A stretch of 64,000 nt of DNA, taken from assembly GCA_027858295.1 (NCBI GenBank), contig JAQICZ010000043.1, positions 23,699 to 87,698 of the forward strand, read 5' to 3'. Both the position numbers and the translations under genes were made by a program. Shown piece after piece: positions 1 through 44,539 of this stretch. The first letter of the stretch is position 1. The number at the start of each line of letters is the position of its first letter. This DNA comes from Nanobdellota archaeon. Lineage in GTDB: Archaea; Nanobdellota; Nanobdellia; Pacearchaeales; GW2011-AR1. The notes beneath the pieces are model-generated. The model was not told where the DNA came from and ran no database searches. It saw only the letters and a list, made by a program, of their open reading frames with translations.

Positions 1-293
1 CGTCTTGTTTTTCCTGAGCCTGAATATTCCCTAGTAAATACATTACATCTGCACCTCGAACAAGTGGAAACTCGTGGTAAATAATTAGAATCATATTTTG
101 TGGAACCAATATAATTTCCGCAATCTGCACAATACCATAATTGACGCTTATCCATACAGAATACCATCATCAGTATTCCAACCAAGGATAACAATGCACC
201 TATCTCAGAGCCGTCCATCATTATCACTATCCCAACTCCGAGCATAACTATACCCCCGAAGAATCTTCTTACATTAAAAACTTTTTCTACCAT
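1..293 (-). CDS. hypothetical small membrane protein with CxxC...CxxC zinc-ribbon-like tail (C-terminus off window)
   Basis: ATG at 293-291, open to position 1; hand translation MVEKVFNVRRFFGGIVMLGVGIVIMM...WYCADCGNYIGSTKYDSNYLPRVSTCSRCRC; absent from ORF track because there is no in-window stop. Confidence 0.4.
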   Translation of the reverse strand, partial: MVEKVFNVRRFFGGIVMLGVGIVIMMDGSEIGALLSLVGILMMVFCMDKRQLWYCADCGNYIGSTKYDSNYLPRVSTCSRCRCNVFTREYSGSGKTR

Positions 294-411
294 AATGAAT
301 TATTTTATTATTTTTATTAATCAAATAAAAAATATTCTCCTGACAATTTGGATCAAGAGGACATTTTGTTGAGAGCCTTCTTCTAAAGTCATTTGAAGTT
401 GTGTTTGATTA

Positions 412-846
412 TTATCTATAAATTTTATAATGGAATTCATCCCTTGCTAAACGATTCTCTAAATGAAAACCATTCTTCTGGCAAAAACTACAAGCTTTGC
501 TTGGGATACCTCTTCCACAAATAATCTTTATTGTCTTTTTTTCCCAAAGAGAAGCAATGCCAGCAACGCCTTCATTAATCCACCTGGTCTGCCTTATCAG
601 TTCAGGAAATTCATTTAGGACACTCACTCTTACACTAAAAGCCCCACTTACCTTAACTACACTAAGATCCTTTTGAGGAGACCCCTCATTATTTAGAGTT
701 ATCCCAATGTATGCTGTGCCGGGAGTATAGCCTTCAAGTACGATGACTCCATTTTCCTCCACCTCTATTGAAGTGATGCGCGACTGGGCTTCAGAAATTA
801 ATACGAAAGCCATTATTGATACGATAACGAAAATTAACTTTTTCAT
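412..846 (-). CDS. hypothetical secreted protein
   Basis: 144-aa ORF, ATG start, TAA stop; Sec-type signal peptide MKKLIFVIVSIMAFVLISEAQS; no family recognised. Confidence 0.6.
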   Translation of the reverse strand: MKKLIFVIVSIMAFVLISEAQSRITSIEVEENGVIVLEGYTPGTAYIGITLNNEGSPQKDLSVVKVSGAFSVRVSVLNEFPELIRQTRWINEGVAGIASLWEKKTIKIICGRGIPSKACSFCQKNGFHLENRLARDEFHYKIYR

Positions 847-866
847 AATTGTAAATTTTAAAATTA

Positions 867-1319
867 TTACTTGCCGCCATTTTTTGCACTTTCAATAGCA
901 GCTTTAAAACCTGAGCGAGGCAATTTGAATTTAAAACGTTCAAAAGAGCAATCAAACTCAGAATCTGAGATACCACTATGCAACATAGCAAATCTAAAAT
1001 TACCAGCACTATTAATTTTTATATAATACCCCCTCCCAATACAGCCCAAGTCAAATGACTTCTGTGGGTTATGAGCTTCAAAATCTATAGAACAAGGTTG
1101 CCTTCCAATCTTTAAACCTGGAAGAAGAATGCGAGCGTCCTCGGATACAGGATCGATTTCGAAAGTTATCTCCTGTCCCTTTTCAGATTTTACAGTTATA
1201 GTGGCACAATACCGATTGTCTTTAAAGACTGCTTTCCACTTGCCACTTCCAAGAGAGGAAGTGACTGTTAACGTTGCAAACAATGCAACTAAACTTAAGA
1301 CTAAAATTGATTTTTTCAT
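867..1319 (-). CDS. hypothetical secreted protein
   Basis: 150-aa ORF; signal peptide MKKSILVLSLVALFATLTVTSS, almost identical to that of 2658..3746. Confidence 0.6.
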   Translation of the reverse strand: MKKSILVLSLVALFATLTVTSSLGSGKWKAVFKDNRYCATITVKSEKGQEITFEIDPVSEDARILLPGLKIGRQPCSIDFEAHNPQKSFDLGCIGRGYYIKINSAGNFRFAMLHSGISDSEFDCSFERFKFKLPRSGFKAAIESAKNGGK

Positions 1320-1380
1320 AACGTTTTATTTTAAAACTAATAATTGTAATTTAATAATCCCGGATAATAACTAAAATGTA

Positions 1381-2595
1381 TTATTGTTTTCTATATATTT
1401 CAAACTTCTCACTTTTGGACAGAATATCTCTTTTTCCAGGATCTCTTAATATAACATTTATAGAATAGACTCCTGGCACTTTCTTTTCTGCAGGTAATCC
1501 GCCACTCAGGATATATTTACCGCTAGATGTTAACGGAAAATATTCGCTATGGACCTTCTTGCCTGTCATGTCATTTACTATATTTATAGCAACATGCAAC
1601 CTCTCTTTAGATGCTGCACGAATAACAGCCCCCCAGCAAATTTCTTCCTCTGCATAAAAACTTCTTTTAACGCCTGAAAAATCTGATAGAGTAGTTGCAT
1701 TGTTACCACGAACATTAAAAGAGAATATTAAAAAAATATTATCCTGCTCGGCATCTCTTGAGAAGACCAACTTAGTCCCTTTAGATACGGGCTTTCTATT
1801 ATTTTTAAAATCTGATTCTTTATTCTTACTAACGGACTTGCGCCAATAGCCATCTCCATAAGCTAAATATTCAAGAGAGTATTCTGAACCTATTTCTGAT
1901 AATACATCTCGAAAGTACATCCCAGCCCTAGGTGTAGAATATTTTTTCCTCTCCTCAGTTTTTTTCTCATTATAAAAATCACTTGAGGCTTTAGAATAAT
2001 CTAATTTTTGTAGGATAAAACCTTTGGACATGGCATCTAAAGCCTTCTTCTTCCCGACCTCTCGACCCGACCTTAATTCCTGCAGATAGTCTGATCCACC
2101 ATTACTCATGAATGATGAGAAACCTAAATTATCTGGATCAAAACCTTCCCTCCTAAACTCAAAAAAAGTATCCACCTGTTTTCTCTTCCAATCTAAAGAG
2201 TTTAAGAAAGCACTATTCCTAGAAATCAAAGATAAAATTTCACTCTTTTCCACAGCTACACTAATAGATATTCTGCCACCACATCTCCGACATCTACCGG
2301 AAGAACAAGATGGACAATCTACCCGAGTTTTTTTTATCTGTCTATTTATTAAACCAGTACCTTTACACCGACCACACTTTGGATATTCATCATACTTATT
2401 TTGCCTACCAGACCCCCTACAAAGTGGGCATGTTTGACCTACAAGTTGATCCTCCACTATAGTCCCAATACCATTACAATGCCCACAAATACCAGTATCG
2501 CAGAAATCGCAAGGAGCCATAGCAATGCCTTTCCCGTCCTGAGAATAAGCATTAATAGATAGAAAGACTACTATCGTTAAAATTAACTTTTTCAT
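1381..2595 (-). CDS. secreted protein with four DnaJ-type CxxCxGxG zinc-finger repeats
   Basis: 404 aa; signal peptide MKKLILTIVVFLSINAYSQ followed by CGHCNGIG, CPLCRGSG, CGRCKGTG, CRRCGG motifs; C-terminal half unassigned. Confidence 0.65.
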   Translation of the reverse strand: MKKLILTIVVFLSINAYSQDGKGIAMAPCDFCDTGICGHCNGIGTIVEDQLVGQTCPLCRGSGRQNKYDEYPKCGRCKGTGLINRQIKKTRVDCPSCSSGRCRRCGGRISISVAVEKSEILSLISRNSAFLNSLDWKRKQVDTFFEFRREGFDPDNLGFSSFMSNGGSDYLQELRSGREVGKKKALDAMSKGFILQKLDYSKASSDFYNEKKTEERKKYSTPRAGMYFRDVLSEIGSEYSLEYLAYGDGYWRKSVSKNKESDFKNNRKPVSKGTKLVFSRDAEQDNIFLIFSFNVRGNNATTLSDFSGVKRSFYAEEEICWGAVIRAASKERLHVAINIVNDMTGKKVHSEYFPLTSSGKYILSGGLPAEKKVPGVYSINVILRDPGKRDILSKSEKFEIYRKQ

Positions 2596-2657
2596 AACAC
2601 TTTATTTTTCAGATTAATTTAAAGAAGTAACTTAAAAATTAAGTTTTACTCTTGTTA

Positions 2658-3746
2658 TTAAAAACTTATAGTTAGTTGAGAAGACCTTACGTCCTGGTCT
2701 GCACCATTCCTATAATTAATATTTGTCCCTCTTACTCCCCTATAATTAGTTATAGAGTTCATTAAACCACGAATCCCCCCTTCTTCAATTTTAGCTTTAC
2801 AATTCAAGATTAGCTTGGTTTCTTCATAACCTATTTTACCACCTAAACAATCCTTTGTAACCATTGTGAACTCACCATTAAGCGATATCCTTTCTCCAGA
2901 CTTCCTCCCAGATAAAGATATATATGTACTTTCTTCTTTCTCATCACATAAATCGGTAAAAATAATTACGGGAATTTTTAAGGAAAAACTATTTCCTGAT
3001 TGGACTAACTTAACTTTCTTCCAAACATCCACCTCAATATAGTTGCCTAACTTTTTAGTACTTAATGAAAAACTATAATCTTCTCCGATATTGGAAAACC
3101 TATTTTGAGAGGAACTATTACTTTCACTTCTGACATTAGATGATGAGGACTGACTACTGGAATAACTACGCCTTCTAACTTCTGAGGGATGTCTATCGTA
3201 GTCTAAAGAAAATTTATAAACAAAAAGTCCAGGCCCGCCAGTTCCACCATAACCGCTGGACGAACTTTTTAAATATTCAAAATCACCATTGAGTATCTTT
3301 GGAAGAACTTCTCCGGGATCCATATTCTTAGGATTCATTAAATATCCTTGCCGTCTATACTCAGCATCGTCTGGTAACAAACCGAATTGATTTCTTTTTG
3401 ATTCTGAATAAAAGTCTGACTGACTTCCTAGTTGAGTATCCCACCCAGAGTAATTTTCTTTGTAAGCTTTAACGGTCATACCACTTTCGAAATATTTTAT
3501 TTCGTTAACAAGTATTACTGCTCTGCCATGATAATCTGTTTTGATTACTGCTACTTGGCTTCTTCCATCAAGCAACTCAATTATTACTCCTTCTAATGGA
3601 CGATTGTTATATTGATCCTCTACCTCGAAAACTAATGCCCAACTTGTTCCGTAATCAATTCTCCCCATAATACTATAATTACGTTGAGAGAATGCACTTG
3701 TTGCAAATAATGCAACCAAACTGAATAATACAATTGATTTTTTCAT
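2658..3746 (-). CDS. hypothetical secreted protein with Ser-rich linker
   Basis: 362 aa; signal peptide MKKSIVLFSLVALFATSAFSQ; low-complexity SYSSSQSSSSNVRSESNSSSQ segment. Confidence 0.6.
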   Translation of the reverse strand: MKKSIVLFSLVALFATSAFSQRNYSIMGRIDYGTSWALVFEVEDQYNNRPLEGVIIELLDGRSQVAVIKTDYHGRAVILVNEIKYFESGMTVKAYKENYSGWDTQLGSQSDFYSESKRNQFGLLPDDAEYRRQGYLMNPKNMDPGEVLPKILNGDFEYLKSSSSGYGGTGGPGLFVYKFSLDYDRHPSEVRRRSYSSSQSSSSNVRSESNSSSQNRFSNIGEDYSFSLSTKKLGNYIEVDVWKKVKLVQSGNSFSLKIPVIIFTDLCDEKEESTYISLSGRKSGERISLNGEFTMVTKDCLGGKIGYEETKLILNCKAKIEEGGIRGLMNSITNYRGVRGTNINYRNGADQDVRSSQLTISF

Positions 3747-3810
3747 AATGTTGAAATTTAAAGATTAAATTCAATCCTCTTTTTTATTTATTTTAAGTTC
3801 AATCACTATT

Positions 3811-4308
3811 CTACTTTTCGTTAAAGCATTTTCCATCATACACATAAACCTTCCTGGTTATACTAAAGTCATGTGGACTCATATATTTGACTATTAGCCT
3901 ACCCCCTTCTATTTTATAATTTGATCCAGGCCATAGAAATAATATATCCTCAACACCGTTCTCATTAACAAAGTCTATTGATTTGGTGCGCCATCTGCTT
4001 CCCACATCTAAAGCTACAATTTTAGATGGACCTGTATTGCCCAAACATATTGTCCACCAAGAGACCAGCACAAGTTTATCTCCGTCAACAGATAAATGAG
4101 TTAAATCGTATTCTATTGATGAAGACTTATCGAGCCCTCTCTCGCAATCATCCAGATGATTGGCATACATATACTTTGAGACTATTTTGGTTTCAATAGC
4201 CGATTTTTCACCCTCAGGTGCAAAATGGAATTTAAAACAATCCCATTTTAGGATTACAATTATCGCGATAGAGATTATCACGACTAATACTGTCATTAAC
4301 TTTTTCAT
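3811..4308 (-). CDS. hypothetical N-terminally anchored membrane protein
   Basis: 165 aa; single N-terminal TM helix LMTVLVVIISIAIIVIL; ATG start, TAG stop. Confidence 0.55.
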   Translation of the reverse strand: MKKLMTVLVVIISIAIIVILKWDCFKFHFAPEGEKSAIETKIVSKYMYANHLDDCERGLDKSSSIEYDLTHLSVDGDKLVLVSWWTICLGNTGPSKIVALDVGSRWRTKSIDFVNENGVEDILFLWPGSNYKIEGGRLIVKYMSPHDFSITRKVYVYDGKCFNEK

Positions 4309-4812
4309 AACTGTAAATTTAATTGATTAAAATTTGATAATTTGTTTTTATTATTGACAATATTGTTAACAATAAAAACTTAAAAAAATGTTCAGACTAA
4401 AATGGTAATATTGGAGAGCTATCTACATCTAATTTCTTTGTATCTGGATTAGAAATTAGCCCTGCTTTTCTAGATGTGTCTTTTCTAAAAAGTGATTTTA
4501 TATTAAAACCTCTGTTAAACAGTTTTCCAATGAGATATCCAAATGCTGCAATGAAAAGAATTGTGCCGAAGATGAATTTTATGGTTTCTATGTTGTATGA
4601 TTTTAGTGAAACATTATTGAATAATATAGAAATTATTATTTACAATGTTGTTAACAATGGATTTCTAAAAAAATGTAAGCTAAGCTAAGTTTACATAGAT
4701 TCGGATTCTCATATAAATCGCTAAAGTACGATTGTATCAGGGTATTTCACATTAAGTCTTAAGCGGCTTATTGTGATTTCAATTTTCTTCTTTTGCGAAA
4801 AAAATGAAGAAT

Positions 4813-4946
4813 AAAAAGGATTTGAGACAATCTTTTTTATTAATTAAGTTATTATAAAAATACCTTAGGCGAAATTGTTTTTTAATGTTGCCTTTATTTT
4901 TGAGAACTTTTAATCAATAAAACTAATAAATGCTCAAATCCTTTTT
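4813..4946. other. 14-bp perfect inverted repeat pair flanking 106 bp
   Basis: AAAAAGGATTTGAG at 4813-4826 and its exact reverse complement CTCAAATCCTTTTT at 4933-4946, inside the 786-bp gene-free spacer 4309-5094. Confidence 0.8.
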
Positions 4947-5094
4947 TTGTTTTAATTTAATGAAAGGGTTTTTATTTTTTACCCAATTACCTTCCCCTTG
5001 TTGGTGTCAAATTTCACTGACTAATTAGACTATTCAACATCATAATTTATGAATACATAATAAGCTACGTCTTCTAAAAAATAATAATTTCTCG

Positions 5095-5841
5095 TTAATA
5101 TAGCCCATAGTAAGCTGTAGAATTTGGCCAATATCCCCATCCATGATTCAGGGCTGATTCTTCTCTTGTTAGCCAACATTCGCCAGACTTATTCATTACA
5201 TAGATTTCTCCTGAGTCGGAAGTAATCATTAGCCCGGGAGATGTTTCTGCACGGAAGGTTATACATTGATTTTCTCCTGGCTTATAATGTTGTAAAAATT
5301 CCTCGTAATTGCTGATTAAATACCAACCGTCAAGGAAACAAGTTAATGGAAACTTCTTAATTACAGGAGCTAAATCGTCGGCACTCCATTCTAGTGGAAA
5401 AGGTTTGGCATGCAACTTTCTAATCTGATTGTTAAATAGAATGTCTGTTGTTTCAACGACTCCGTTCTTTGTATAAACTTGACCATGATTGTTTTTCAAA
5501 ACAGCACCTTCTTCTTTTGTTCTGCCGGAAAAAGTATTTCCGTCAACATTGTAACTAAGAACCGTCCCCTTAGGAATTTGTATCAATTCAAAATCACCAT
5601 CAACGGGACGGGTTTTGATGAGCTGATAGAAGGCCTCACAAAAGTCCGAAGAATACGGATAATAGTTCTTTTCAGAATCTGATTGTGCCAATTTTTCCAA
5701 AGCCTCGGCCTTTTCTTTGGCTGCCTCATCTTCGGCCAGACGGGCTTTCTTACTTTCAATTTGCCAAACCATTACTACTAATACTACTACGAGGGCGGCT
5801 GCAACTAACAACCACGTTCTCTTTTTTTGAATTGTCTTCAT
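5095..5841 (-). CDS. hypothetical N-terminally anchored protein
   Basis: Track ORF 5095..5928 extends through a hexamer repeat and a hairpin; internal ATG at 5841 gives MKTIQKKRTWLLVAAALVVVLVVMVW (TM anchor). Confidence 0.55.
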   Translation of the reverse strand: MKTIQKKRTWLLVAAALVVVLVVMVWQIESKKARLAEDEAAKEKAEALEKLAQSDSEKNYYPYSSDFCEAFYQLIKTRPVDGDFELIQIPKGTVLSYNVDGNTFSGRTKEEGAVLKNNHGQVYTKNGVVETTDILFNNQIRKLHAKPFPLEWSADDLAPVIKKFPLTCFLDGWYLISNYEEFLQHYKPGENQCITFRAETSPGLMITSDSGEIYVMNKSGECWLTREESALNHGWGYWPNSTAYYGLY

Positions 5842-5871
5842 AATTTTAATTTTAATTTTAACTTTAATCTT
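5842..5871. repeat. (AATTTT)-like hexamer tandem repeat, 5 units
   Basis: aatttt aatttt aatttt aacttt aatctt read directly, between the ATG at 5841 and the R1-a hairpin. Confidence 0.85.
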
Positions 5872-5874
5872 AAT

Positions 5875-5928
5875 TTGCCTCGCAGGGTCGGGACTATTTA
5901 TTAAATTATCCGTCGCGCTGCGAGGCAA
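5875..5928 (-). repeat. R1 junction element copy a (perfect 11-bp arms)
   Basis: TTGCCTCGCAG (5875-5885) and CTGCGAGGCAA (5918-5928) are exact reverse complements; AT-rich core ends in ATTATCCGTCGCG. Confidence 0.85.
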
Positions 5929-5948
5929 TTTTTAATTGAATATGATGG

Positions 5949-6764
5949 TTAAACTGCAATTGGACCCTTTATGTTCGGATGGGCAATATAATCTACCAAT
6001 TCAAAATCTTCAAATTTAAAGTCGAATATTGATTTGATAGATGGATTTATTTTCATCATTGGAAGTGGATATGGCTCTCTTGATAATTGCAAAGTCACTT
6101 GCTCGATATGATTTGAATAAATATGGGTATCACCTAAGGTGTGAACGAATTCACCTAATTCTAAATTACAAACTTGCGCCATCATCATTGTTAGTAGCGC
6201 ATATGAAGCAATATTGAATGGCACACCTAAAAAAGTATCGGCAGACCTCTGATAAAGCAGACATGAAAGTTTTCCATTTGCGACATAGAACTGGAAGAAT
6301 GCATGACAAGGTGGCAGATTCATATTCGGAATATCTGCAACATTCCAAGCACTTACAATTATTCTTCGCGAGTCGGGATTTACCTTAATTGTATTTACAG
6401 CCTCTTTTATTTGGTCTATACTCCCTCCTTGGTAATCTGGCCAGCTTCTCCACTGATAACCATAAATATGCCCAAGGTTTCCCTCTCTATCCGCCCATTC
6501 ATTCCAAATTCTTACTCCATTTTCTTGGAGATATTTAACATTTGTATCACCTGCCAAAAACCATAGCAGTTCATAGATTATTGATTTTAGGTGAAGCTTC
6601 TTTGTTGTTACCAATGGAAAACCTTCCCTTAGATCAAAGCGCATTTGGTAACCGAATACCGAAATTGTTCCGGTACCGGTTCTGTCTTCTTTTTGCACAC
6701 CGTTTTTTGAAACGTGCTTTAATAAATCTAGATATTGTCTCATTATGTTCGTTTTAATATTCAT
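5949..6764 (-). CDS. thyA: thymidylate synthase (ThyA type)
   Basis: Full-length ThyA motifs: [64 protein letters not shown]; real start may be the internal MRQYLDLL at 6743. Confidence 0.95.
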
Positions 6765-7052
6765 TTAATCTGTCTGCTCTATTTGATTAGGTTCTTTAAC
6801 CAATACAGCCTGCTCCTTTAATACCAAGCTATTTGCAAATGATTCCTGCTGTAGCGATAGGGTCCTGTTAGTAATCTCCTCAGAGTATTTTCGCAATTCA
6901 ATAAGGGATTTGTGAAGCTTCTTTTGTGCTTCGACTAAACTATTTTGGTTTTCCACTGTTGGATTCCGTTTGAACTGAGTGGTATAAACACTTGCTTCTA
7001 CTGCAAATTTTACAGTGGCTGATAGATGATTTGAATTATACAAGTTTTCCAT
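6765..7052 (-). CDS. hypothetical protein
   Basis: 95-aa ORF; its TAA stop (6765-6767) abuts the thyA ATG (6762-6764), suggesting co-transcription. Confidence 0.5.
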   Translation of the reverse strand: MENLYNSNHLSATVKFAVEASVYTTQFKRNPTVENQNSLVEAQKKLHKSLIELRKYSEEITNRTLSLQQESFANSLVLKEQAVLVKEPNQIEQTD

Positions 7053-7286
7053 TTTTCTTTTATTTCGTTTTTTGTGATTTTATTTTCAGGTGCCCCTTTA
7101 TTATTTCAAGGTCACAGGTTTCGTACACTGACTCTAAATAGTCGTAATCATTACAAGTGTCTATGGCTAAAAATATTTGCCACTCAACTTCCTCCTCTTC
7201 TGCTTTTTCGACTGCAGAATTATAATCTTCTATTAATTTATTAATTTATGAGGAAGGGTCGTGTTCCATTCCTTAAGTGCAGAAAA

Positions 7287-7607
7287 TCAGACATCAGGCA
7301 AACCACTTCTATTAGCTTTTAGGGGAACAAGAATGATTCTTCTCATATAAGTTTTAAGTTCTTGTTTTAGGTGTAATTCAAGCTTCTCAATCCCAAGGCC
7401 AGAAGATAAAGCAAACAAAGTGTATTTATCTTTTACCAGCATAAATTCGATAAGCCCCGTTAGGAATGAAAGAGCCAATTCTTTAGTTTGAATTATTGAC
7501 ATAGCATCTCCTATAAATCCTGGATATAATAAGCCAGAATTAACAATTGATTCTTTTGCCCCGTATAAACAAGTTTCGAAAGTCATTTGATTCTTCTTTG
7601 TCATCAT
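7287..7607 (-). CDS. hypothetical protein
   Basis: Track start 7610 is TTG; first ATG at 7607; TGA stop. Confidence 0.5.
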   Translation of the reverse strand: MMTKKNQMTFETCLYGAKESIVNSGLLYPGFIGDAMSIIQTKELALSFLTGLIEFMLVKDKYTLFALSSGLGIEKLELHLKQELKTYMRRIILVPLKANRSGLPDV

Positions 7608-7610
7608 CAA

Positions 7611-8699: not shown

Positions 8700-8737
8700 A
8701 ATCTTACTGGTTTTAATTTAAATAAATTACTTTTAAG

Positions 8738-35687: not shown

Positions 35688-35707
35688 AATACTATTATTT
35701 ATTAATT

Positions 35708-36322: not shown

Positions 36323-36371
36323 CTTTTTTAATTTTGTGCATTATAATTATTTAGTTAACTTTAAAACATTG

Positions 36372-36450
36372 TTAGCCGTCCGCTCAAAAATTGATAGGTT
36401 TAGTTATCGCTCCGGGCGGGGGTGAAGATTGGATTGCTGCTTGTAAATAT
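36372..36450 (-). repeat. R1 junction element copy k
   Basis: TTAGCCGTCCGCTCAAAAATTGATAGGTTTAGTTATCGCTCCGGGCGGGGGTGAAGATTGG. Confidence 0.85.
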
Positions 36451-36461
36451 TTAAGTGTTGG

Positions 36462-36776: not shown

Positions 36777-36806
36777 TTTGTTTTATTTTATTATTATCAA
36801 TTTTTC

Positions 36807-36872
36807 TTCGCCGTCCGTTCATAATTGATAGGTTTAGTTATCGCTCGCTGTGCGTGCAGGTTTTGATTACTG
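36807..36872 (-). repeat. R1 junction element copy l
   Basis: TTCGCCGTCCGTTCATAATTGATAGGTTTAGTTATCGCTCGCTGTGCGTGCAGGTTTTGATTACT; 31 nt from the ATG at 36776. Confidence 0.85.
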
Positions 36873-37220
36873 GTTTACAGGTAAAGACTCTTTTCTCTTA
36901 TCTTCTTTGTTCCATTCTATCCAGTTTTTGATATTGATTCCGAAAATTAGAATTGAGAACATTATTATAACATATGATTCCATCATATATCCCATACCTA
37001 GATTGGCGATTATGCCGATACCATAAAAAACAAATGCTACTTTCTTCTTTTTTTTCAAAAGTATTTGTGTGGATAAAATAAAGAATATACTTACAAAGTC
37101 TAGAAAGTGGAATTGGGAAATTTTTTCTTTATGAATCCCTGGAAGAATTTCGAGATAAGCTAAAATGAGTGCAAATGCTACAAAGAGCGTACTTAAGATT
37201 ATTGCTTTTTTCATAATCAT
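36867..37220 (-). CDS. hypothetical multi-pass membrane protein
   Basis: 117 aa; 3-4 TM helices. Confidence 0.55.
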   Translation of the reverse strand: MIMKKAIILSTLFVAFALILAYLEILPGIHKEKISQFHFLDFVSIFFILSTQILLKKKKKVAFVFYGIGIIANLGMGYMMESYVIIMFSILIFGINIKNWIEWNKEDKRKESLPVNQ

Positions 37221-37262
37221 AAATTTTAGAAATTGTTATTATATTATTAACTGTAAAAATAC

Positions 37263-38672
37263 TTATTTATTTATTACATAGGGGCTATTAAGAGCTGTTA
37301 ATTCCCACTGAACTGCATATGGTGTCCATCTTCCAAGGTGAGGATTTTCTGGATGAACTATGCCTGGAGTTTCAGTAACCCTCATTAATTGAGGAATCAC
37401 TTCTTTTGAAATCATCATTGTATTGATTGAAGTATAGAATTTGTAAACTCCATCCTGAGGACCGAAATCCAATACACTTTCAATTTGATGAAGGTTAGGA
37501 TGCGTTTCTTCCACTTTTGGGAAGATCTGTTCATCCTCTGAAAAAAGCACATGAATAAACGCTTCATCTTCTGTGTGTACAAACTCGGTTTGACGTTCTT
37601 TCAGGGTGCTATTTTCTATTTGCGTTTTTAATTCACGTTCTGGTATAACGTGGTAAACAGCACCATCACTTGAATAGATACAGAGAACTTTTGGAATTGC
37701 ATTTTCCCCTAATAATACATTCTCTGCATCAACATCATCTTCGAAGGAGTCCATACTAGAATCATTCAAACAATTGAGGATTATTGGATAAGACTTTACT
37801 GGCATACTTTTCTTATAATACCAATCTTCGTCTCTACTGACATCCTTATCCTTTCTTTTTCCTTTCTTGTTTGATTTAATACTGGCCTCTTTTGATTTTA
37901 ACTCCCTTATCCTCTTTTTGATTACAGGAATTTCTCTCTCCATATATTTATTATGGTAGTGGATGAAATCACCTGCGCGTTCTATGCAATAGAGTAAACG
38001 TTCTATTTCTTTACCGACTTCTTCATCATTAAGAAATTCACTAGATAATTCTTTCAACTTTGATAAATCATTAAGCCTCCAGTTAAATTCTATTAGACTA
38101 GACCTTTCTCTTTTTGCAACCTTTTGCATTCCAAGAATTCTTGTTTCCAATTCCAGAAGTTCCTCCTTAACCCTTGTTTGTTCGGGAGATACAATTCCCT
38201 CTGATTTCAAAACAAATCGGCCCCACCTTTGTTGCGGATTACGAAAGAAGTGATTATACCTTTCTCTATTCTTTCTCATTGAACCTCTTTTATTTAACCG
38301 AGAGATTGCTTCTGCTGAGGGGTTGCCTAAATTAATATTTGTTTCGGTTAATACTCCATCTATTCGTCTCCTGTCGCCTACTTGATATCCATAGGAGAAT
38401 TTTGAATCGGAAACGTTAGCATGTCCTAACATCAATTGTTCCAAAAAATCGTCTTCTTTAAACATTACTTCAGATATATACTCTTCGACTTCATCTTTTA
38501 TCTCTAACCACAATTCATTTAATTGTTTTTTCTTCTCAATTTGTGCAACTTTCTTTTTGACTTCTTCATCTGTGCAATCTGGTCCGAATTCTAATTCCTC
38601 GTATGACTGACGGATATCGTCACTGAATGGAGCTGTGAATTGATTCTTTAGTTGATTCATTATATTATTCAT
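37263..38672 (-). CDS. hypothetical protein
   Basis: 469-aa ORF, ATG start; charged coiled-coil-like middle; no family recognised. Confidence 0.6.
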   Translation of the reverse strand: MNNIMNQLKNQFTAPFSDDIRQSYEELEFGPDCTDEEVKKKVAQIEKKKQLNELWLEIKDEVEEYISEVMFKEDDFLEQLMLGHANVSDSKFSYGYQVGDRRRIDGVLTETNINLGNPSAEAISRLNKRGSMRKNRERYNHFFRNPQQRWGRFVLKSEGIVSPEQTRVKEELLELETRILGMQKVAKRERSSLIEFNWRLNDLSKLKELSSEFLNDEEVGKEIERLLYCIERAGDFIHYHNKYMEREIPVIKKRIRELKSKEASIKSNKKGKRKDKDVSRDEDWYYKKSMPVKSYPIILNCLNDSSMDSFEDDVDAENVLLGENAIPKVLCIYSSDGAVYHVIPERELKTQIENSTLKERQTEFVHTEDEAFIHVLFSEDEQIFPKVEETHPNLHQIESVLDFGPQDGVYKFYTSINTMMISKEVIPQLMRVTETPGIVHPENPHLGRWTPYAVQWELTALNSPYVINK

Positions 38673-38745
38673 TTTTTGTTTTTTAGAAATTTACTTTTGC
38701 TTACTGATTTTCCTATTTTGCTTTTATTAAATAAAAGCACAGGAA

Positions 38746-39003
38746 TTAATTTAAATAACCTTTTGGGACACCAAAATAATAAGTGCTAATTTCGTCTTGG
38801 TCCATTTCAAAGAAGAGCTCGTCAAAGGCTTCCTATTGCTCTTTATATTCTTCCTGGAAACTAATTATTCCCTTTATTGTTTTGTCAATTTCCTTAATTG
38901 GTTGTTTTATTAATTCTAAATCAATAAACCCGATTACTTTTACTGGGGGCAACAAACCATTTCCACCTTGTGTACTTTGGTCTTGATTTGAATTTTTGTT
39001 CAT
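38746..39003 (-). pseudogene. QGGNG-N-terminus family member with in-frame TAG
   Basis: MNKNSNQDQSTQGGNGLLPPVKVIGFIDLELIKQ...SFQEEYKEQ, TAG at 38833-38835, then EAFDELFFEMDQDEISTYYFGVPKGYLN. Aligns with QEEYETEVQEFEEFLAEMTQDELSIYF of 34508..34873, with the TAG opposite Gln. Confidence 0.6.
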
Positions 39004-39040
39004 GTTGTTTATGTTATTGTTAATTTATTTAGAATTTTCC

Positions 39041-39107
39041 TTCGCCGTCCGCTCAGGACTGATAAGTTATGTTATCCCTCGCGGTGCGTGCAGAAATTGA
39101 GCTACTT
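39041..39107 (-). repeat. R1 junction element copy m
   Basis: TTCGCCGTCCGCTCAGGACTGATAAGTTATGTTATCCCTCGCGGTGCGTGCAGAAATTGAGCTACT; 38 nt from the ATG at 39003. Confidence 0.85.
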
Positions 39108-39127
39108 AGTTATTGACAACCTTTTTG

Positions 39128-39634
39128 CTATAATTCCCAAGATTCAAGGCCGGTCGCTTCCTCCATGGTATTATAATAATTGGTGTCTACTTCTGCCTTC
39201 TTCCAGTCAAGCAAAAAAGATTCCATATCTGTTTTCTTTTCTTGCAAGAAGAGTTTCAGTGCTTCAATTGGCAAATCTTCCAGATTATTTTTCCAAATCC
39301 AGCCGTGTCTTAAAAATTTACTTTTACCCTTTGCACCATTTATTGTAAAATAGCTGTCCTTTATCCTGCCGAGCCAATGAGTTGAGATGTATATCTTTTC
39401 GTCATCTTCTGAGATGGTCATAACTTTGTCTTTGAATACTTCGGTATATTTGGAATGATCAATTGGCTGCCTGTTATTATAGAAGTCGGCGGTCTTTTCT
39501 TTTAGGATTGGGTGAAGTTCTTCTGACTTTTTGCTTGTTGAATCTAGGTCGATTTTGCCTATTACTTTTACTTTTTTGACTCCATTTTGATTCGCTCTAT
39601 TAATAGAGGTTGAATTTTGATTTGATTTTTTCAT
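39128..39634 (-). CDS. QGGNG-N-terminus family protein 3
   Basis: 168 aa; MKKSNQNSTSINRANQNGVKKVKVIGKIDLDSTSKK... Confidence 0.55.
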   Translation of the reverse strand: MKKSNQNSTSINRANQNGVKKVKVIGKIDLDSTSKKSEELHPILKEKTADFYNNRQPIDHSKYTEVFKDKVMTISEDDEKIYISTHWLGRIKDSYFTINGAKGKSKFLRHGWIWKNNLEDLPIEALKLFLQEKKTDMESFLLDWKKAEVDTNYYNTMEEATGLESWEL

Positions 39635-40202: not shown

Positions 40203-42734
40203 CTACGCTAATCGTATGTACTTCTTCCAGCCCTTGTCTGACTTTACTTCTTCAACTTTGATCAAATTCTTCTCTAGTAGCTTGTTTTTTATCACGTTTC
40301 CTTTTCTGGCTGATAATCCCACAATATCGTATAATGCTACTGTTGCATTTTTATGAGCGGGGTTTTCTTTTAGGAATTTTAATAGTTTCAATTCTTCTTC
40401 TGAAATTTTTAGGGGACTGTTGACGGTTGACGGTTGACAGTTGACCGACAAGGCCGGGCTTGTTTTTGAAACTGACGTTTGATTTTTCATTTCTGGGTTA
40501 CTTGCCACAGGTTCTTCTCTTTTTTCCTCAACAATAGGTCTTTCAGGTATTTCGGACTGTTGACTGTTGATGGTAGGGGTAGATTCTAAATTTGGTGAAA
40601 GAGTCGATAGCTCCCCCAGATTAGTTGGGGCAATCAGTTGATCAGTATTAACAGGAGTTGGTATTTTTATTTCATTGACAGTTGAAGTCTGGGGTTTGAG
40701 AGTTGGGGTAATAATCTTTTCAACACTAGCAGATACTGATTCCTTTATTTTCTTACTTGATTTAAATTGTTGCTCAAAGGCGTGGTTTATTGCTTTCATT
40801 ATATCTGTCGTTGTATAATATTCTTCGTGTAGTCCTTCTTCTAATAACGACTCTATTTGATTTAGCTTCATTCCTTCATTCATCTTTTCGCAGGCAAAGT
40901 AGTATAACACTTCTTGAGCTGGAGTCAAAGAGGGAGTCTCACTAACTACTGGGAAAGAGGGTAGCATTTCTGATGTCGGACTTTTGACATCAGAGCTTGA
41001 GGCCTGAAGCTGGAGGTCTGAAGCTTTGGGTAAGGGATGTTCTGATTGTTCGATACTGCTAATTTCGGGGTTTTCCGGGTCTGTCTCTGTGGATAGCGAT
41101 TCTTCGATTTGTCGATTGTTCGATTGTTCAGAGAAGGGAAGTGTGTAGGTAAAGGACTCTGCCGATTCGATTGGCGGCTGTTCGATTGTCCGATTGTCCG
41201 ATGAGTTTACAGGATTAACTACGTCTTCTACTGATGAGACTACTTCTGAAATTGGGTGGTGATCTTTATCACCTGTTAAGGCGACCATTGGCCTATCCTC
41301 TGGTTCTCTAGTAAATTTTATTTCTTCAATAAATTCTGGGTCTTCCTTTTCCCCTCTGAAACCTTCAACTAAACATTGAGCTCTTACTCTAATATCGTCA
41401 TCTGTAATTTTGCCTTCCCTTAAATCTGTATAAGGAACGCTTACTAAGAAGGGTGTTGTATGCCTTTCTGATAGTTTTATTATTGCCTTCCCTATTGGGA
41501 GTTGTGAAAAACTTTCTTTTGTTTCTCTCATTTGCATTAATGACGAAATTGCTTCAATATCTTGAGGTAACTGCTGCTGGAAGGCTATATGACATGCAGA
41601 GTTTCCAACTACTGTATCTGAAAGTTTTGAGATATGCTGATCTAAACAAATTAATCCTGTTCCATATTCTCTCATCTCTCTATAAATCATATCTGTTACT
41701 GATTCTGCCATAAAGTTTGTAGTTTTTTTCAAGAAAACATTATGAGCCTCGTCTACTAGAATTGCGTGATTGAATCCTGCATCAATTGCATTTGGATTTG
41801 CTTTTTTTAATCTATAAATGTAAGTTAGAACATATTCACAGAAGAATTTCTTTTCAATTGTTGATAGGGAATTTAATTCCAAAACCACTCTCTTATCGAA
41901 GAGGTCTTCAATTGACATTCCTCTTTTTCCATCATAGTTTACAAATTGACCAAAGCTACCGAAGGTTAAGACTGAGGCGATTCTTAATGCTGATTCATAC
42001 CAACCAGTCTCTCTACCTTTTGCTTCTCTACCTTTTGCTTCAAGCATTCTTTTTACGTGTTGCCAATTTGGATAGTGAGTTGCACCTTTGTAAATTCCCC
42101 AAGCCTCGTAAATTTCGTCTAGCGTTTCTAAAAGAATTTTATGAACACCGAAGGACGCTGAGAAACTTTCAGTTAATAAATCACATAATGTATTAATCCA
42201 TTCTTTTGGGTTTACACCTTTTGGTGGTCTGTTAATATTTACTTTGAATAAATTTGAAACCTTGTCATTTCCGACTGTGAAGGTCATTAAGTTTTTGTCG
42301 AGTGAAGTTAATGGTCTAAAACTTGATTTCCAATCGAAGACCAGAAATGGTTTATCTTTTTTTATGAATTCTTTTAGAATATTGATTGCGAATGTTGTTT
42401 TACCTGAACCACTCATACCACTAACACAAACATGTCTTGGCCAATCTTTTTCTCTTAAACCAAAACCATACAAATCCTTGTCTGCGTAGCTTACTTTCGC
42501 TAAAGGGTATTCACCGTCTACAGTTCCTTCTTTAGGTGGCGCCAAAAGAACTTGTTTGTCTAATAATTTGTTCAAATGTTTTTGGTATAAACTAGAAAGG
42601 ATTTGGTGAATCTCATTTTTTTCTTCTAAAGTTGAAGCCACAGAATATCTGAAATATAATTCATCAATTTTTTTACCAAATAATGGTTTTAGCCCAGCCG
42701 CTAATTCTTCTACACTTGTTGCTCTGTACATCAT
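40203..42734 (-). CDS. HerA/FtsK-superfamily (DUF87-like) ATPase with long disordered linker and C-terminal wHTH-like domain
   Basis: 843 aa. Walker A GMSGSGKT (aa 106-113, nt 42396-42419), Walker B AILVDEAH, LICLDQ motif. About 300 aa of S/T/P/E/Q-rich low complexity. C-terminus LKFLKENPAHKNATVALYDIVGLSARKGNVIKNKLLEKNLIKV. ATG overlaps the upstream TGA (ATGA). Confidence 0.75.
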   Translation of the reverse strand: MMYRATSVEELAAGLKPLFGKKIDELYFRYSVASTLEEKNEIHQILSSLYQKHLNKLLDKQVLLAPPKEGTVDGEYPLAKVSYADKDLYGFGLREKDWPRHVCVSGMSGSGKTTFAINILKEFIKKDKPFLVFDWKSSFRPLTSLDKNLMTFTVGNDKVSNLFKVNINRPPKGVNPKEWINTLCDLLTESFSASFGVHKILLETLDEIYEAWGIYKGATHYPNWQHVKRMLEAKGREAKGRETGWYESALRIASVLTFGSFGQFVNYDGKRGMSIEDLFDKRVVLELNSLSTIEKKFFCEYVLTYIYRLKKANPNAIDAGFNHAILVDEAHNVFLKKTTNFMAESVTDMIYREMREYGTGLICLDQHISKLSDTVVGNSACHIAFQQQLPQDIEAISSLMQMRETKESFSQLPIGKAIIKLSERHTTPFLVSVPYTDLREGKITDDDIRVRAQCLVEGFRGEKEDPEFIEEIKFTREPEDRPMVALTGDKDHHPISEVVSSVEDVVNPVNSSDNRTIEQPPIESAESFTYTLPFSEQSNNRQIEESLSTETDPENPEISSIEQSEHPLPKASDLQLQASSSDVKSPTSEMLPSFPVVSETPSLTPAQEVLYYFACEKMNEGMKLNQIESLLEEGLHEEYYTTTDIMKAINHAFEQQFKSSKKIKESVSASVEKIITPTLKPQTSTVNEIKIPTPVNTDQLIAPTNLGELSTLSPNLESTPTINSQQSEIPERPIVEEKREEPVASNPEMKNQTSVSKTSPALSVNCQPSTVNSPLKISEEELKLLKFLKENPAHKNATVALYDIVGLSARKGNVIKNKLLEKNLIKVEEVKSDKGWKKYIRLA
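40419..40449. repeat. four tandem TTGACGG-type heptamers inside the ATPase gene
   Basis: TTGACGG TTGACGG TTGACAG TTGACCG read directly; the same heptamer builds the R3 elements. Confidence 0.8.
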
Positions 42735-43207
42735 TTTAATTGTTGTGCCTCCGATTCTAGAATTTTTTGAAGTTTAGAGGGAATAAAGTATTTCACTTCA
42801 CCTTTAAATCCGGAATAATTATCATAGGTATTATGCAATTCATCGATATCAATATCTGCCTCGATAACTTTATTCCCACCATTTCTACTTATTGCTTTAG
42901 TACAATTTTCATCTGCTATAATTGCAGAATGGTAGGGGGTTCCATCAGAATAAGCCCATACAACGATATACCCCCTTGAAGGTGCGCATACTTCAACTAA
43001 GCTATTTAAGATCTTTGCGGCATCCCAGGGATGAAGATTTGTATCTTTGGATATCTCCCCTACTCCATTAAAAGTACCACCAAGGCAATTACAACCTAAA
43101 TTCTCTTTTGCAAGTTCTATTTTTCCCTCTATAAAATCATAAAATCTTTCTTTCTCTTGTAACTCTTTCAAGGCTGAGAAATAATGGATGGACTTTTCTA
43201 CATTCAT
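42731..43207 (-). CDS. hypothetical protein (possible papain-like/NlpC-P60-like fold, speculative)
   Basis: Track start is GTG; ATG at 43207 lies 1 nt after the upstream stop; Cys (GCNCLGG) and a later His (GTPYHSAII) are spaced as in Cys-His hydrolases, but this rests on motif resemblance only. Confidence 0.5.
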   Translation of the reverse strand: MNVEKSIHYFSALKELQEKERFYDFIEGKIELAKENLGCNCLGGTFNGVGEISKDTNLHPWDAAKILNSLVEVCAPSRGYIVVWAYSDGTPYHSAIIADENCTKAISRNGGNKVIEADIDIDELHNTYDNYSGFKGEVKYFIPSKLQKILESEAQQLK

Positions 43208-43208
43208 T

Positions 43209-43664
43209 TTAATTTTCCTCCAAGAAGCCACCTAGAATATTCATTCTTGATTCTTTTTCTTGAAGTTCTCTTTCGTAAATTCTTCTTTCCTTCTTCAAGT
43301 TTGCAATATCTTTCCAACAGTCGATTCTTTCTTTTAGTTGTGATTCTACGATAGTTACCTTCTTTCCTCGAAGATCATTCTTCTCTCTCATAATTTCTCT
43401 TTGATCTGCTAAGGGAATTCTATCATTTTCTAGAATAAACTTATTTATCTCCGATTTTAACAACTCTCCGTCTTCGAAAAATTGCTTGCTCATTTGCTCT
43501 CTACTAATAATTAAAGTATTAATTTCTGAAATTGACATCTTAAGTGACTCAATCTTCTCTTGTCCAATTTCTGAGATTGCGTCAAGAGAGGGAGTTTCAC
43601 CTATTTCTAGCTTTTCCGGAGCTAATATATCTTTTTTCATTTGCGAAAAATCATTGAATTCCAT
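43209..43664 (-). CDS. hypothetical coiled-coil protein
   Basis: 151 aa, highly charged heptad-like sequence; first gene of the three-gene ATPase module. Confidence 0.55.
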   Translation of the reverse strand: MEFNDFSQMKKDILAPEKLEIGETPSLDAISEIGQEKIESLKMSISEINTLIISREQMSKQFFEDGELLKSEINKFILENDRIPLADQREIMREKNDLRGKKVTIVESQLKERIDCWKDIANLKKERRIYERELQEKESRMNILGGFLEEN

Positions 43665-43834
43665 ATATTTATCACTTGTTAGTAGTTTATAAAACTTTCT
43701 GCCGTGTTGTCACTGGGAAGTGTATTATTTTGAGGATTACTGAGATGAAATAGGGGGAAAGAAGAAAGAAAGAGCAACGCACCCGCTGCGTTTTGGACAC
43801 GCAAGCGCAGTCCAAACTTGCTCTGCTAAGGCAT

Positions 43835-44052
43835 CTAAATTAGAGCATCATCGCTTCGCGATTTGAGTTTGGTTCATAGTAACAGAGTTAGAGATAATAA
43901 ACGGGACAATTGGGATTTATTTTACAAGCTAGGTACGCAGCGGATAATATTATGCTTTCTTATGGGTGGGATTTTCTATCAGCTTCAGCCTCCAAATAAA
44001 AAGCTGAGAGGAATTGCCCTGGGTGGGGATCACTGACCGAAGGGAAGGTCTG
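43835..44052. repeat. tRNA-proximal tandem repeat unit A1
   Basis: Shares with A2: ATCGCTTCGCGATTT, ACAATTGGG, CGCAGCGGATAATATTATG, TTATGGGTGGG, ATCAGC, GGAATTGCC(C/T)TGGGTGGG(G/A)ATCACTGACCGAA(G/A)GGAAGGT. Confidence 0.8.
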
Positions 44053-44116
44053 TTTTGGATGGACAAGGGTAGGGGAAATAAAAAAATAGAAAAACCAATA
44101 CAAAGGCCGAAGGCAG

Positions 44117-44414
44117 CTAAATTAATGTGTAATCGCTTCGCGATTTTGGGTCGGGTTCGTGAAAGCAGATATTGGGAATTACAACAGAACAATTGGGGTT
44201 CATTCAACAATCTAGGCTCGCAGCGCAGCGGATAATATTATGTGTTTATGGGTGGGCTTTTCAATCAGCGTCAGAAAAAGAAGTGAGCTAGACCATTTGC
44301 CTGTAAATATGGGTGCCAAAATTTCAGACAAGTTAAAACCCTTGGTAAAGTTTTAACGAAATTTTGTCTGTGGAATTGCCTTGGGTGGGAATCACTGACC
44401 GAAAGGAAGGTATG
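44117..44414. repeat. tRNA-proximal tandem repeat unit A2 (carries an M-type insertion)
   Basis: Same blocks as A1 plus an insert of about 90 nt (44285-44372) holding a CCATTTGCCTGTAAATATGG motif and the hairpin GTTAAAAC/GTTTTAAC. Confidence 0.8.
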
Positions 44415-44456
44415 TTTGAAGAGATAAAACTGCAAAAATGGGGTTGTAAGAAAATA

Positions 44457-44539
44457 TGCAGGTGACAGGGTTTGAACCTGCGTAGACATAAGTCAATGGA
44501 TTTTGAGTCCATCCCGTTTGACCACTCCGGCACACCTGC
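44457..44539 (-). tRNA. tRNA-Leu (anticodon CAA)
   Basis: Hand-folded cloverleaf: acceptor GCAGGTG/CACCTGC plus discriminator A; anticodon stem ATGGA/TCCAT with loop CTCAAAA; long variable arm; T arm GCAGG-TTCAAAC-CCTGT; no encoded CCA. Confidence 0.9.

Follow-up and report, generated by a model that had tools for sequence, protein, structure and literature searches.

A probable hypervariable gene island at a conserved chromosomal position in Pacearchaeota-like Nanoarchaeota

In the Nanobdellota archaeon of assembly GCA_027858295.1, a long run of co-oriented genes, nearly all of them without detectable relatives (ORFans), stops beside a tRNA-Leu(CAA) gene. Is this run an integrated mobile element, as an earlier note on the DNA had proposed with a hypervariable accessory island as the other possibility, or a resident part of the chromosome? 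The window, by which we mean the whole stretch analysed here, comprises 64,000 nt (contig JAQICZ010000043.1, forward-strand positions 23,699-87,698), and the run consists of a hypervariable array of 54 genes (1..39634, minus strand) headed by the genes of a HerA-type ATPase and a small coiled-coil protein. We conclude that the block is probably a positionally conserved chromosomal hypervariable ('flexible') gene island, located at a fixed hot spot in Pacearchaeota-like Nanoarchaeota.

The single-strand character of the block described in the earlier note was confirmed. Counting open reading frames (ORFs) of at least 80 aa, positions 1-43,700 are covered to 78% on the minus strand vs 13% on the plus strand, and each plus-strand ORF is nested in or overlaps some longer minus-strand ORF. 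The right flank (44.9-64 kb) had been described as mixed-strand housekeeping DNA, which agrees with its minus/plus coverage of 58%/41% and with its archaeal housekeeping matches in Pfam. After removal of nested ORFs, about 57 minus-strand genes are left, 54 of them downstream of the ATPase gene; in the array, the median gene is 166 aa long, the median spacer measures 98 nt and 78% of the DNA is coding. Their guanine-plus-cytosine (GC) content by codon position is 0.43/0.32/0.31, compared to 0.43/0.31/0.26 in the flank, and this flank-like periodicity indicates that the array ORFs behave as real coding sequences. The abutting or overlapping gene pairs pointed out previously at 6764/6765, 7610/7611 and 42731-42734 are real, as is that at 43207/43209 with the ATG start called in contig L001. 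An assembly artefact is ruled out by four other contigs (two JGI samples, one Logan run), which are 99.6-100% identical to the window. As expected, the window does not contain the left end. A second assembly of this population shows the array continuing for about 2.1 kb past the window's left edge with two more same-strand genes (100 and 216 aa) and then meeting the 3' end of a convergent rpoD. The whole same-strand block, including this part, amounts to about 46 kb and about 60 mostly unique genes.

To place the locus among its relatives, one genome per GTDB species was scanned; relatives of the ATPase were found in 199 stretches, and 80 loci with 10-kb flanks were examined. The related loci were sampled via the ATPase and hence come from genomes that encode it, and their ORFs were called crudely and then clustered into families. 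The ATPase is present in 80/80 loci, and a 151-aa coiled-coil protein (cc151) is encoded directly upstream in 74 of them. Ribosomal proteins S9, L13 and L18e, the tyrosine recombinase XerA, a 184-aa 'Recombinase'-domain protein and a HAD protein each occur in about 26-38 of the 80, and tRNA-Leu(CAA) lies between L18e and the coiled-coil gene in about 30. To the left of the array, the other assembly of this population carries the convergent genes rpoD-S11-S4-S13-DUF655-Rpb4-L21e, followed by rpoN. A convergent rpoD-S11-S4-S13 is also found in 16 other species, 2.1-9.8 kb downstream of the ATPase gene, compared to about 44 kb here. The layout of the locus can be written as XerA ... S9-L13-L18e <- tRNA-Leu / cc151 -> ATPase -> array -> / <- rpoD-S11-S4-S13. 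The canonical archaeal order of this cluster is S13-S4-S11-rpoD-L18e-L13-S9-rpoN. Because the array's far end faces rpoD-S11-S4-S13, the canonical rpoD/L18e junction is split by a reverse-oriented insert, of which the first two genes are conserved and the remainder is not.

The size of the variable part differs greatly among relatives. In the minimal loci L037 and L038, the ATPase and coiled-coil genes are kept with only 1-3 cargo genes, and in a set of 55 species the same-strand zone that follows the ATPase measures between 0 and at least 10 kb. The array in the window is the largest seen, with about 42 kb for the array and about 44 kb from ATPase to rpoD. In a second clade of about 14 loci (e.g. 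L056, L062 and L064), the cc151-ATPase pair has a different housekeeping context, lying downstream of genes that look by eye like L35Ae, L10e and a methyltransferase.

The content of the array turns over much faster than its surroundings, bearing out the hypervariability that had been proposed. None of the window array proteins has a BLAST relative (E < 1e-5) in the 80 other species loci, and phmmer detected weak relatives for a single one (5095-5928), located in the arrays of other species. A 469-aa array protein matches only itself among 5.8 billion clusters, and a 450-aa one gave one marginal match (E = 1.5e-6, 20% identity) in an exhaustive scan of 1.84 billion representatives. Locus pairs with 75-85% identical ATPases have 8-11% of their array families in common vs about 80% of their upstream-flank families; at 55-70% ATPase identity, the shares are 1-4% vs 33-40%. 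In the pair L056 and L064, whose ATPases are 88% identical, DNA similarity ends about 300 bp past the ATPase gene, and three common families follow in collinear order, interleaved with unrelated genes of different number. This pattern indicates insertion, deletion and replacement at the level of genes, not merely fast substitution. The composition of the array is nevertheless native: array and flank correlate at r = 0.99 in tetranucleotides and r = 0.96 in codon usage, and GC content is 0.32-0.37 throughout.

Compared to this cargo, the two genes at the head of the array are stable. Averaged over one set of 406 locus pairs, the ATPase is 61% identical and the coiled-coil protein 53%, compared to 58-66% for L18e, L13 and S9 and 67% for XerA, and ATPase divergence correlates with ribosomal-protein divergence at r ~0.5. 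On sequence comparison, the ATPase and coiled-coil genes are thus core genes, about as conserved as the neighbouring ribosomal proteins. The coiled-coil gene (43209..43664, minus strand) has no family match. A sporadic 166-aa gene (42731..43231, minus strand) lies between the two anchor genes and has homologues in only five other loci; other species carry unrelated genes (f50, f331) in this slot, a junction that looks like a minor insertion site.

The ATPase itself (40203..42734, minus strand) is an 843-aa soluble P-loop ATPase of the HerA clade in the FtsK-HerA superfamily (Pfam DUF87, 3e-11), without a transmembrane segment. Its Walker A (GMSGSGKTT) and Walker B (LVDEAHN) motifs are well preserved, GMSGSGKT and VDEAHN being invariant in 20 homologues. 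An AlphaFold model built with 20 homologues has a confident core, a helical middle domain and predicted disordered linkers at 476-601 and 661-774, and ends in a winged helix of H-H-H-beta-beta topology (pLDDT ~90). Foldseek matched this model at probability 1.0 to HerA, DndH and VirB4 structures, the best matches being HerA (4d2i), HerA-NurA, DndH-C (7es4; target-normalised TM-score 0.75) and VirB4 (4ag5; 0.7), and HerA was the only sequence match in the PDB. The protein nevertheless falls far below every equivalog cut-off (CedD 59/600 bits, CedB 30/700, HerA 24/800, VirB4 15/643), and no NurA, CedA or VirB6-like neighbour was recognised in Pfam and NCBIfam scans of the window proteins. Its relatives number in the hundreds, are labelled Pacearchaeota, Nanoarchaeota or Woesearchaeota and are about 70% identical over the N-terminal 470 residues; these labels and the archaeal L18e-L13-S9 operon agree with the DPANN-type host assumed in the earlier note. 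The ATPase probably forms a distinct family restricted to Nanoarchaeota-like DPANN archaea and would act as a hexameric DNA translocase with a housekeeping role. A motor with linkers and a terminal winged helix, encoded a few kb from XerA, recalls FtsK by analogy, and its link to the array may be only positional. Our literature searches found no description of this locus or of this ATPase family in DPANN archaea.

In the arrays of other species, 398 proteins of at least 80 aa were classified with a simple hydropathy rule: 69% have a transmembrane-like segment and 61% have it at the N-terminus, compared to 19% and 14% of upstream-flank proteins and 38% and 30% in the window array. The earlier estimate of at least 12 products with a signal peptide or a membrane anchor in the window is in keeping with 19/50 array proteins (at least 80 aa) flagged as transmembrane-like by this hydrophobicity heuristic, 15 of them at the N-terminus. 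Among 150 randomly chosen array-zone proteins of other species, Pfam gave few matches, mostly to extracellular or envelope modules (PKD x3, LysM x2, CBM96 x2, disaggregatase repeat x2, OMP_b-brl x2, and further TonB_C, Lcl_C, DUF5018, Band_7 and a WecG glycosyltransferase). NCBIfam matches for the same 150 proteins were dominated by a few housekeeping genes (GatE, PEP synthase); as these lie past the true island end, the same-strand definition of the zone overshoots in some loci.

The export signals of the arrays have an unusual form. Signal peptides with a predicted [AS]Q ending were called by regular expression and by eye, as were lipoboxes, in 40/448 array proteins vs 3/1,082 non-array proteins. 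Counted by family, the figures are 29/363 vs 2/487 (p = 2e-9), and among signal-peptide-like families only, 29/97 vs 2/39 (p = 0.001). A predicted lipobox Cys followed by K/E/D-rich residues was found in 23/363 array families vs 5/487 (p = 2e-5). The literature describes Gln at position +1, directly behind the signal-peptidase-I cleavage site, as a Bacteroidetes-specific feature (PMC5837995, PMC10653852). The array proteins resemble the Bacteroidetes 'Q-rule' pattern in their [AS]Q endings and in the lipobox Cys with its K/E/D-rich stretch, but their host is an archaeon and they have no detectable Bacteroidota homologues. One could imagine the island as an arsenal of exported proteins, common to the whole lineage and rapidly renewed, that is directed at diderm Bacteroidota-type bacteria or copied from them, a proposal that we consider unlikely. 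It would draw on the occurrence of Q-rule and lipobox signals in the arrays of dozens of species rather than in exported proteins elsewhere in the same loci, on peptidoglycan- or outer-membrane-related domains (LysM, murein-transglycosylase-like, TonB_C, OMP beta-barrel, DUF5018, PKD) and on the bacterial type of thyA. If it were true, these Pacearchaeota would interact with bacterial, not archaeal, partners, and the HerA-type translocase with its winged-helix tail and XerA might help to acquire or maintain the repertoire.

Several other explanations were weighed against the chromosomal island. A provirus, integrative plasmid or integrative and conjugative element inserted at tRNA-Leu(CAA), with the ATPase as packaging or transfer motor and the orphan genes as cargo, would account for a long single-strand ORFan run beside a tRNA with an FtsK-HerA ATPase at one end. 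The last array-side gene does end 791 bp from the 3' end of the tRNA (44456..44540, minus strand; ARAGORN and Rfam), as had been noted, and the ATPase weakly matches the PHROG 'terminase large subunit' (5e-14) and VirB4/TraC/CedB-D models. The presence of thyA, a gene common in viruses, can also be counted for this explanation. However, the tRNA is a native member of the rpoD/L18e cluster, found at the same place in about 30 related loci, and the coiled-coil and ATPase genes adjoining it are conserved, vertically inherited neighbours in dozens of species, where the pair is single, syntenic and diverging in step with the ribosomal proteins; this speaks against the claimed integration at the tRNA 3' end. 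A 26-nt sequence of the tRNA 3' half (at most three mismatches) occurs only in the tRNA itself and is absent from the far-boundary contig L085, so that a tRNA-derived direct repeat is lacking both in the window and at the far end. An empty site, another expectation of the earlier note, was not seen among the 80 ATPase-sampled loci, all of which keep the ATPase and 74 the coiled-coil gene, and the pair persists even where the array is reduced to 1-3 genes. Nor did the array deviate from the flank in tetranucleotides, a comparison suggested in the earlier note. About 57 proteins searched with Pfam, PHROGs and NCBIfam include no integrase, capsid or relaxase, nor a portal or VirB4/VirD4 at family level, the only such signals being weak superfamily-level matches of the ATPase, and no ATPase relative was found in 2.9 million IMG/VR viral contigs. 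In most relatives the tRNA is co-oriented with L18e, its 5' side facing the array, whereas here it is inverted, so its orientation is not fixed. Elements that target tRNAs share with the block the tRNA adjacency, the ORFan accessory content and an FtsK-HerA ATPase, as in many archaeal viruses and plasmids, but the block has no integrase and no att duplication, is native in composition, keeps its 'end' genes in conserved synteny and adjoins a tRNA whose orientation is not fixed. Because there is no repeat and no integrase, composition is native, tRNA orientation varies and the anchors occur in near-empty loci, a recent integration at the tRNA is not supported, and we regard a mobile element as a very improbable explanation of the block. 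Even so, the original insertion of the coiled-coil/ATPase pair at the rpoD-L18e junction may well have been a mobile-element event in a distant ancestor; such an ancient insertion is possible and compatible with all observations. The earlier note had set against its own inference a block that is syntenic in relatives without an att-like repeat, or one made of housekeeping operons. The position and the anchors are indeed syntenic and no att repeat was found, but the cargo is neither conserved nor housekeeping.

Gene-by-gene turnover of mostly orphan, short ORFs in one orientation is also what a recombinase-driven platform would produce, either integron-like or resembling Xer/dif modules, in which a XerA-type recombinase shuffles single-gene cassettes. 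Integrons have been reported in Nanoarchaeota, with cassettes enriched in signal peptides; they consist of tandem same-orientation short ORFs with attC hairpins between them and an adjoining IntI with a specific extra domain (PMC9668308). Our locus shares with integrons, including archaeal ones, the tandem short ORFs without assigned function, the richness in signal peptides and a tyrosine recombinase nearby, 3.2 kb away in conserved synteny and scoring 198 bits on an integron-integrase model, and it has direct-orientation intergenic repeats of 75-110 nt (R1, see below). However, the recombinase passes the cut-off of the archaeal XerA model recomb_XerA_Arch (228 vs 220 bits) and fails that of the integron integrase TIGR02249 (198 vs 265, matched in two stretches). 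With 279 aa it is also shorter than the integron-integrase models of about 315-337 positions, and it does not adjoin the array, six genes (three for ribosomal proteins, the tRNA and the two core genes) lying in between. A pattern scan of both array strands found no attC, with zero complementary RYYYAAC...GTTRRRY core pairs spaced by 47-157 nt, and R1, the sole recurrent spacer element, lacks a conserved hairpin, is confined to 7 of about 53 junctions and does not recur in other species. A cassette platform is very improbable. Highly unlikely, too, is a conserved envelope machine for DNA transfer or secretion, of the type IV secretion system or Ced kind, in which the ATPase would be the motor and the small membrane proteins fast-evolving structural parts. 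Such ATPases act with small membrane and pilin proteins in Sulfolobales (PMC11868833), the arrays are dominated by small membrane proteins co-oriented with the ATPase, and the ATPase matches CedD and CedB weakly and, in its fold, HerA, DndH-C and VirB4 (target-normalised TM-score at most 0.75). On the other hand, the number of genes between ATPase and rpoD runs from 1-3 up to about 56, some lineages have the ATPase without an array, and neither the number nor the order of the genes is kept between relatives whose ATPases are 88% identical. Sec-type signal peptides occur in many of the cargo proteins, which can thus do without a dedicated motor. The ATPase shares the RecA-like P-loop core and the HerA-type fold with HerA, VirB4, DndH and CedB/CedD, but it lies far below the CedD, CedB and VirB4 cut-offs (59, 30 and 15 bits vs 600-700), and no HerA barrel or NurA partner, transmembrane segment or VirB4 N-domain match was found. 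CedB and CedD are defined by a transmembrane segment plus an N-domain (PMC11868833), both lacking here, and the tail with its disordered linkers, helical middle domain and C-terminal winged helix sets the ATPase apart from all of these families.

For the chromosomal island, which we prefer, we propose the following history. An ancestor acquired the reverse-oriented pair of coiled-coil and HerA-type ATPase genes between rpoD and tRNA-Leu/rpl18e, and the pair has since become core. The space from the ATPase stop codon to the convergent rpoD operon is the variable compartment, where gains, losses and replacements affect single genes or a few at a time and where the number of genes runs from 1-3 in some species to about 56 in the present genome. 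Its cargo consists mostly of small membrane, lipobox and signal-peptide proteins without detectable relatives, together with pick-ups such as the bacterial-type thyA and decaying fragments such as a PIN gene. Part of the growth may come from gene units that are duplicated locally, each together with its upstream module, and then diverge very fast; adjacent paralogue pairs, seven R1 copies, common N-termini and repeats over signal-peptide-coding 5' ends are the traces of it. Since local duplication preserves orientation and composition, the uniform orientation, the common 5' modules and the native composition would be explained. Another part may be drawn from a larger pool of genes; that acquisition and decay also occur is shown by the bacterial-type thyA and by the PIN fragment. 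For the remaining ORFans, extreme divergence, within-lineage transfer and de novo birth are all candidate sources. The repertoire would function at the cell envelope or in partner interaction and diversify rapidly under diversifying selection, as in the surface-protein islands of streamlined microbes.

Some points weigh against a chromosomal island of this kind. In the second chromosomal context, an array follows the ATPase in some species and none does in others, and the hot spot could follow either the ATPase or the locus. The arrays of other species were read over their first 10 kb, and genes in common beyond that point would escape notice. No within-population variation was seen, the other assemblies of this population being 99.6-100% identical. 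Two clear paralogue pairs only were found, and duplication cannot account for most genes; among the cargo genes, only thyA has an assigned function. The gene, signal-peptide and transmembrane calls, finally, are crude heuristics.

The closest parallel that we know is the hypervariable region HVR2 of SAR11, which holds about 50 genes between the 23S and 5S rRNA genes and is rich in membrane proteins without known function (PMC3448164). HVR2 and similar islands share with ours a content of about 50 or more genes, a conserved position that interrupts a universally conserved operon and structural RNA genes at the boundary, as well as an abundance of such membrane proteins and hypotheticals with no mobility genes required (PMC3448164, PMC2217521). 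Content differs there between all but the closest strains; here, species were compared. Our island differs in that it interrupts the archaeal rpoD / tRNA-Leu-L18e cluster, is strictly single-stranded, abuts a dedicated conserved ATPase/coiled-coil pair, varies about 20-fold in size between species and has almost entirely ORFan cargo, whereas HVR2-type islands are rich in glycosyltransferases. By tests modelled on HVR2, it shows a conserved position, faster turnover than its flanks and, by heuristic prediction, an envelope bias. A second possible parallel is offered by the Mycoplasma vsp/vpma/vsa loci, which vary by site-specific inversion among a handful of paralogues. These loci likewise belong to reduced-genome, host-dependent organisms and have clustered exported or lipobox genes, in which a conserved upstream and signal-peptide 5' module precedes divergent bodies, with a Xer-like recombinase gene nearby. 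Unlike them, our array is entirely co-oriented and mostly non-paralogous, has far more genes and showed no inversion sites.

DPANN archaea combine tiny genomes with a presumed lifestyle of attachment to other cells, and the genes for partner contact are largely unknown. A single fixed, easily located compartment, downstream of a HerA-like ATPase in the rpoD/L18e cluster, would concentrate lineage-specific exported and membrane proteins, and a 46-kb block is large for a genome this small. Comparative and expression studies of host interaction could find a concrete point of entry in the island, whose existence suggests that, like SAR11, streamlined archaea maintain an 'open' genome compartment. 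It also advises caution against annotating such blocks as proviruses or tRNA-integrated islands. The ATPase represents an uncharacterised, highly conserved family with an FtsK-like layout of motor and C-terminal winged helix; FtsK itself is, to our knowledge, absent from these archaea. An unexplained lead on the identity of partners or gene donors comes from the Bacteroidota-like export signals.

Within the array, Pfam searches of all products returned three matches only (thyA, PIN_4 and DUF87/HerA), the very genes recognised in the earlier note. PHROGs, NCBIfam and PADLOC gave weaker matches, mostly to the same three genes, and no function for any other array protein, and a PDB sequence search with 25 concatenated array proteins found no match at E <= 0.1. 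Matches to Pfam 'Serglycin' were rejected as spurious, arising from GS linkers in the concatenated queries. The only clearly functional known array gene, thyA (5949..6764, minus strand), encodes a 264-aa protein of bacterial type, scoring 1e-145 against bacterial models vs 9e-14 against the methanogen-type model and more than 400 bits vs bacterial ThyA chains. The PIN (PhoH2-like) gene (12638..13391, minus strand; PIN_4 match at 13014-13391) has decayed. Its frame still encodes the catalytic LDTNVLL motif, in a stretch that begins directly behind a stop codon and precedes the earliest available start, and the next ORF overlaps the gene in a different frame. This bears out one of the at least four broken genes claimed earlier. 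The ORF pair 15627-15887 and 16592-16975 more probably represents a 222-bp non-coding direct repeat (15640-15861 / 16659-16874, 94% identical), and the ORFs called there are probably not genes. That repeat contains a perfect palindrome with a 23-bp stem (15755-15809; -31.7 kcal/mol, z = -8.9), of which decayed copies at 16774-16830 and 44318-44373 have lost part of one arm. Rfam found no family in the 14-17.7 kb repeat region, nor in the 43.7-44.5 kb gap, other than the tRNA-Leu nearby.

Seven window proteins have predicted signal peptides ending in AQ or SQ in the Bacteroidota style. Three belong to a cluster of four secreted-protein genes (412..3746, minus strand), and the others lie at 25155-26018, 26057-26905, 31848-32459 and 33001-33516, all on the minus strand, as is a lipobox protein at 35708-36322. 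A single-sequence AlphaFold model of the secreted protein 2658-3746 was unusable (pLDDT 37). The diverged local paralogue pairs are 25155-26018 / 26057-26905 and 27070-27516 / 28357-28800 (minus strand, 26% identity). DNA repeat families D4, D5, D8 and D9 span the upstream region and the signal-peptide-coding 5' ends of several secreted-protein genes. The R1 element, 75-110 nt long, occurs in seven intergenic copies within 33542..39100 on the minus strand, 30-60 nt upstream of start codons (33542-33650, 34422-34530, 35027-35113, 35620-35711, 36369-36442, 36791-36866 and 39025-39100), and three or four of the genes behind them have the common N-terminus MNKNSxxNQxxQGGNG. No conserved hairpin and no consensus RNA or single-stranded DNA structure was found in R1, and the spacer repeats of other species are unrelated to it. 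R1 was also tried and rejected as a dif-like XerA site, having a 4-bp dyad only and being species-specific. Upstream of the window array genes, the DNA is A-rich, and TTCTAAAA occurs at most 60 nt upstream in 11/57 of them vs 0/24 flank genes. Array genes of L028 and L029 are preceded by repeated GGAGG(ACAAAA) Shine-Dalgarno-like motifs, which the window array genes lack. GACGGTT-like heptad runs were seen in array spacers at 17611-17640 and 19158-19215, both within a 93-nt repeat (17562-17654 / 19109-19201), and in the region coding for the variable linker of the ATPase (40415-40445).

The gap between the coiled-coil gene and the tRNA (43665..44455) is non-coding. It had been described as filled with tandem repeats; Tandem Repeats Finder reported no tandem array, but two diverged copies of a unit of about 165-290 nt are present (43828-43988 / 44110-44274 and 44010-44055 / 44372-44417), together with one of the decayed copies of the 15755-15809 hairpin element. 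Diverging genes and a turn in GC skew had made the gap a candidate replication origin, which was rejected: in L003, the closest relative, the equivalent gap spans only some 170 bp, there is no orc1/cdc6 nearby and the skew follows gene orientation. The orientation of the tRNA relative to most loci suggests an inversion event. A 31-nt inverted repeat (81% complementary; 44434-44563) flanks the tRNA well beyond the acceptor stem.

On the right, the conserved flank begins with rpl18e-rpl13-rps9 (44950..46134, plus strand), the downstream half of the split archaeal cluster. The gene for XerA (279 aa; 46904-47743, minus strand) is a conserved neighbour rather than an element integrase, and it overlaps by 20 nt that of another conserved neighbour, the Zn-ribbon/'Recombinase'-domain protein (46336-46923, minus strand). 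The two genes stay together in about 35 species loci. The 'Recombinase'-domain protein, 184-195 aa long, has an N-terminal Zn-ribbon and a PF07508 'Recombinase' DNA-binding domain without a serine-recombinase catalytic domain, and may be a XerA accessory factor; a small indel polymorphism relative to contig L001 lies at 46656-46688. Further along, Pfam identified HAD, RRM proteins, patatin, LysE, UvrB, UvrC, HU and DUF1385. Two RRM_1 proteins and a bacterial-type HU (Bac_DNA_binding), encoded at 48664-48927, 54975-55328 and 58957-59214 and adjoining UvrB/UvrC, look bacterial-type. A 94-99 bp sequence recurs at 91-93% identity in the tRNA/L18e spacer (44624-44761) and 6 kb away (50412-50756), where the second copy lies at spurious-looking ORFs (50556-50807). 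Conceivably, the sequence represents a small RNA missing from the annotation, or else a miniature mobile element. In the related Pacearchaeota contig L004, a LAGLIDADG homing-endonuclease gene (8000-8836) borders on this same tRNA-Leu(CAA) at its 3' side or overlaps it there.

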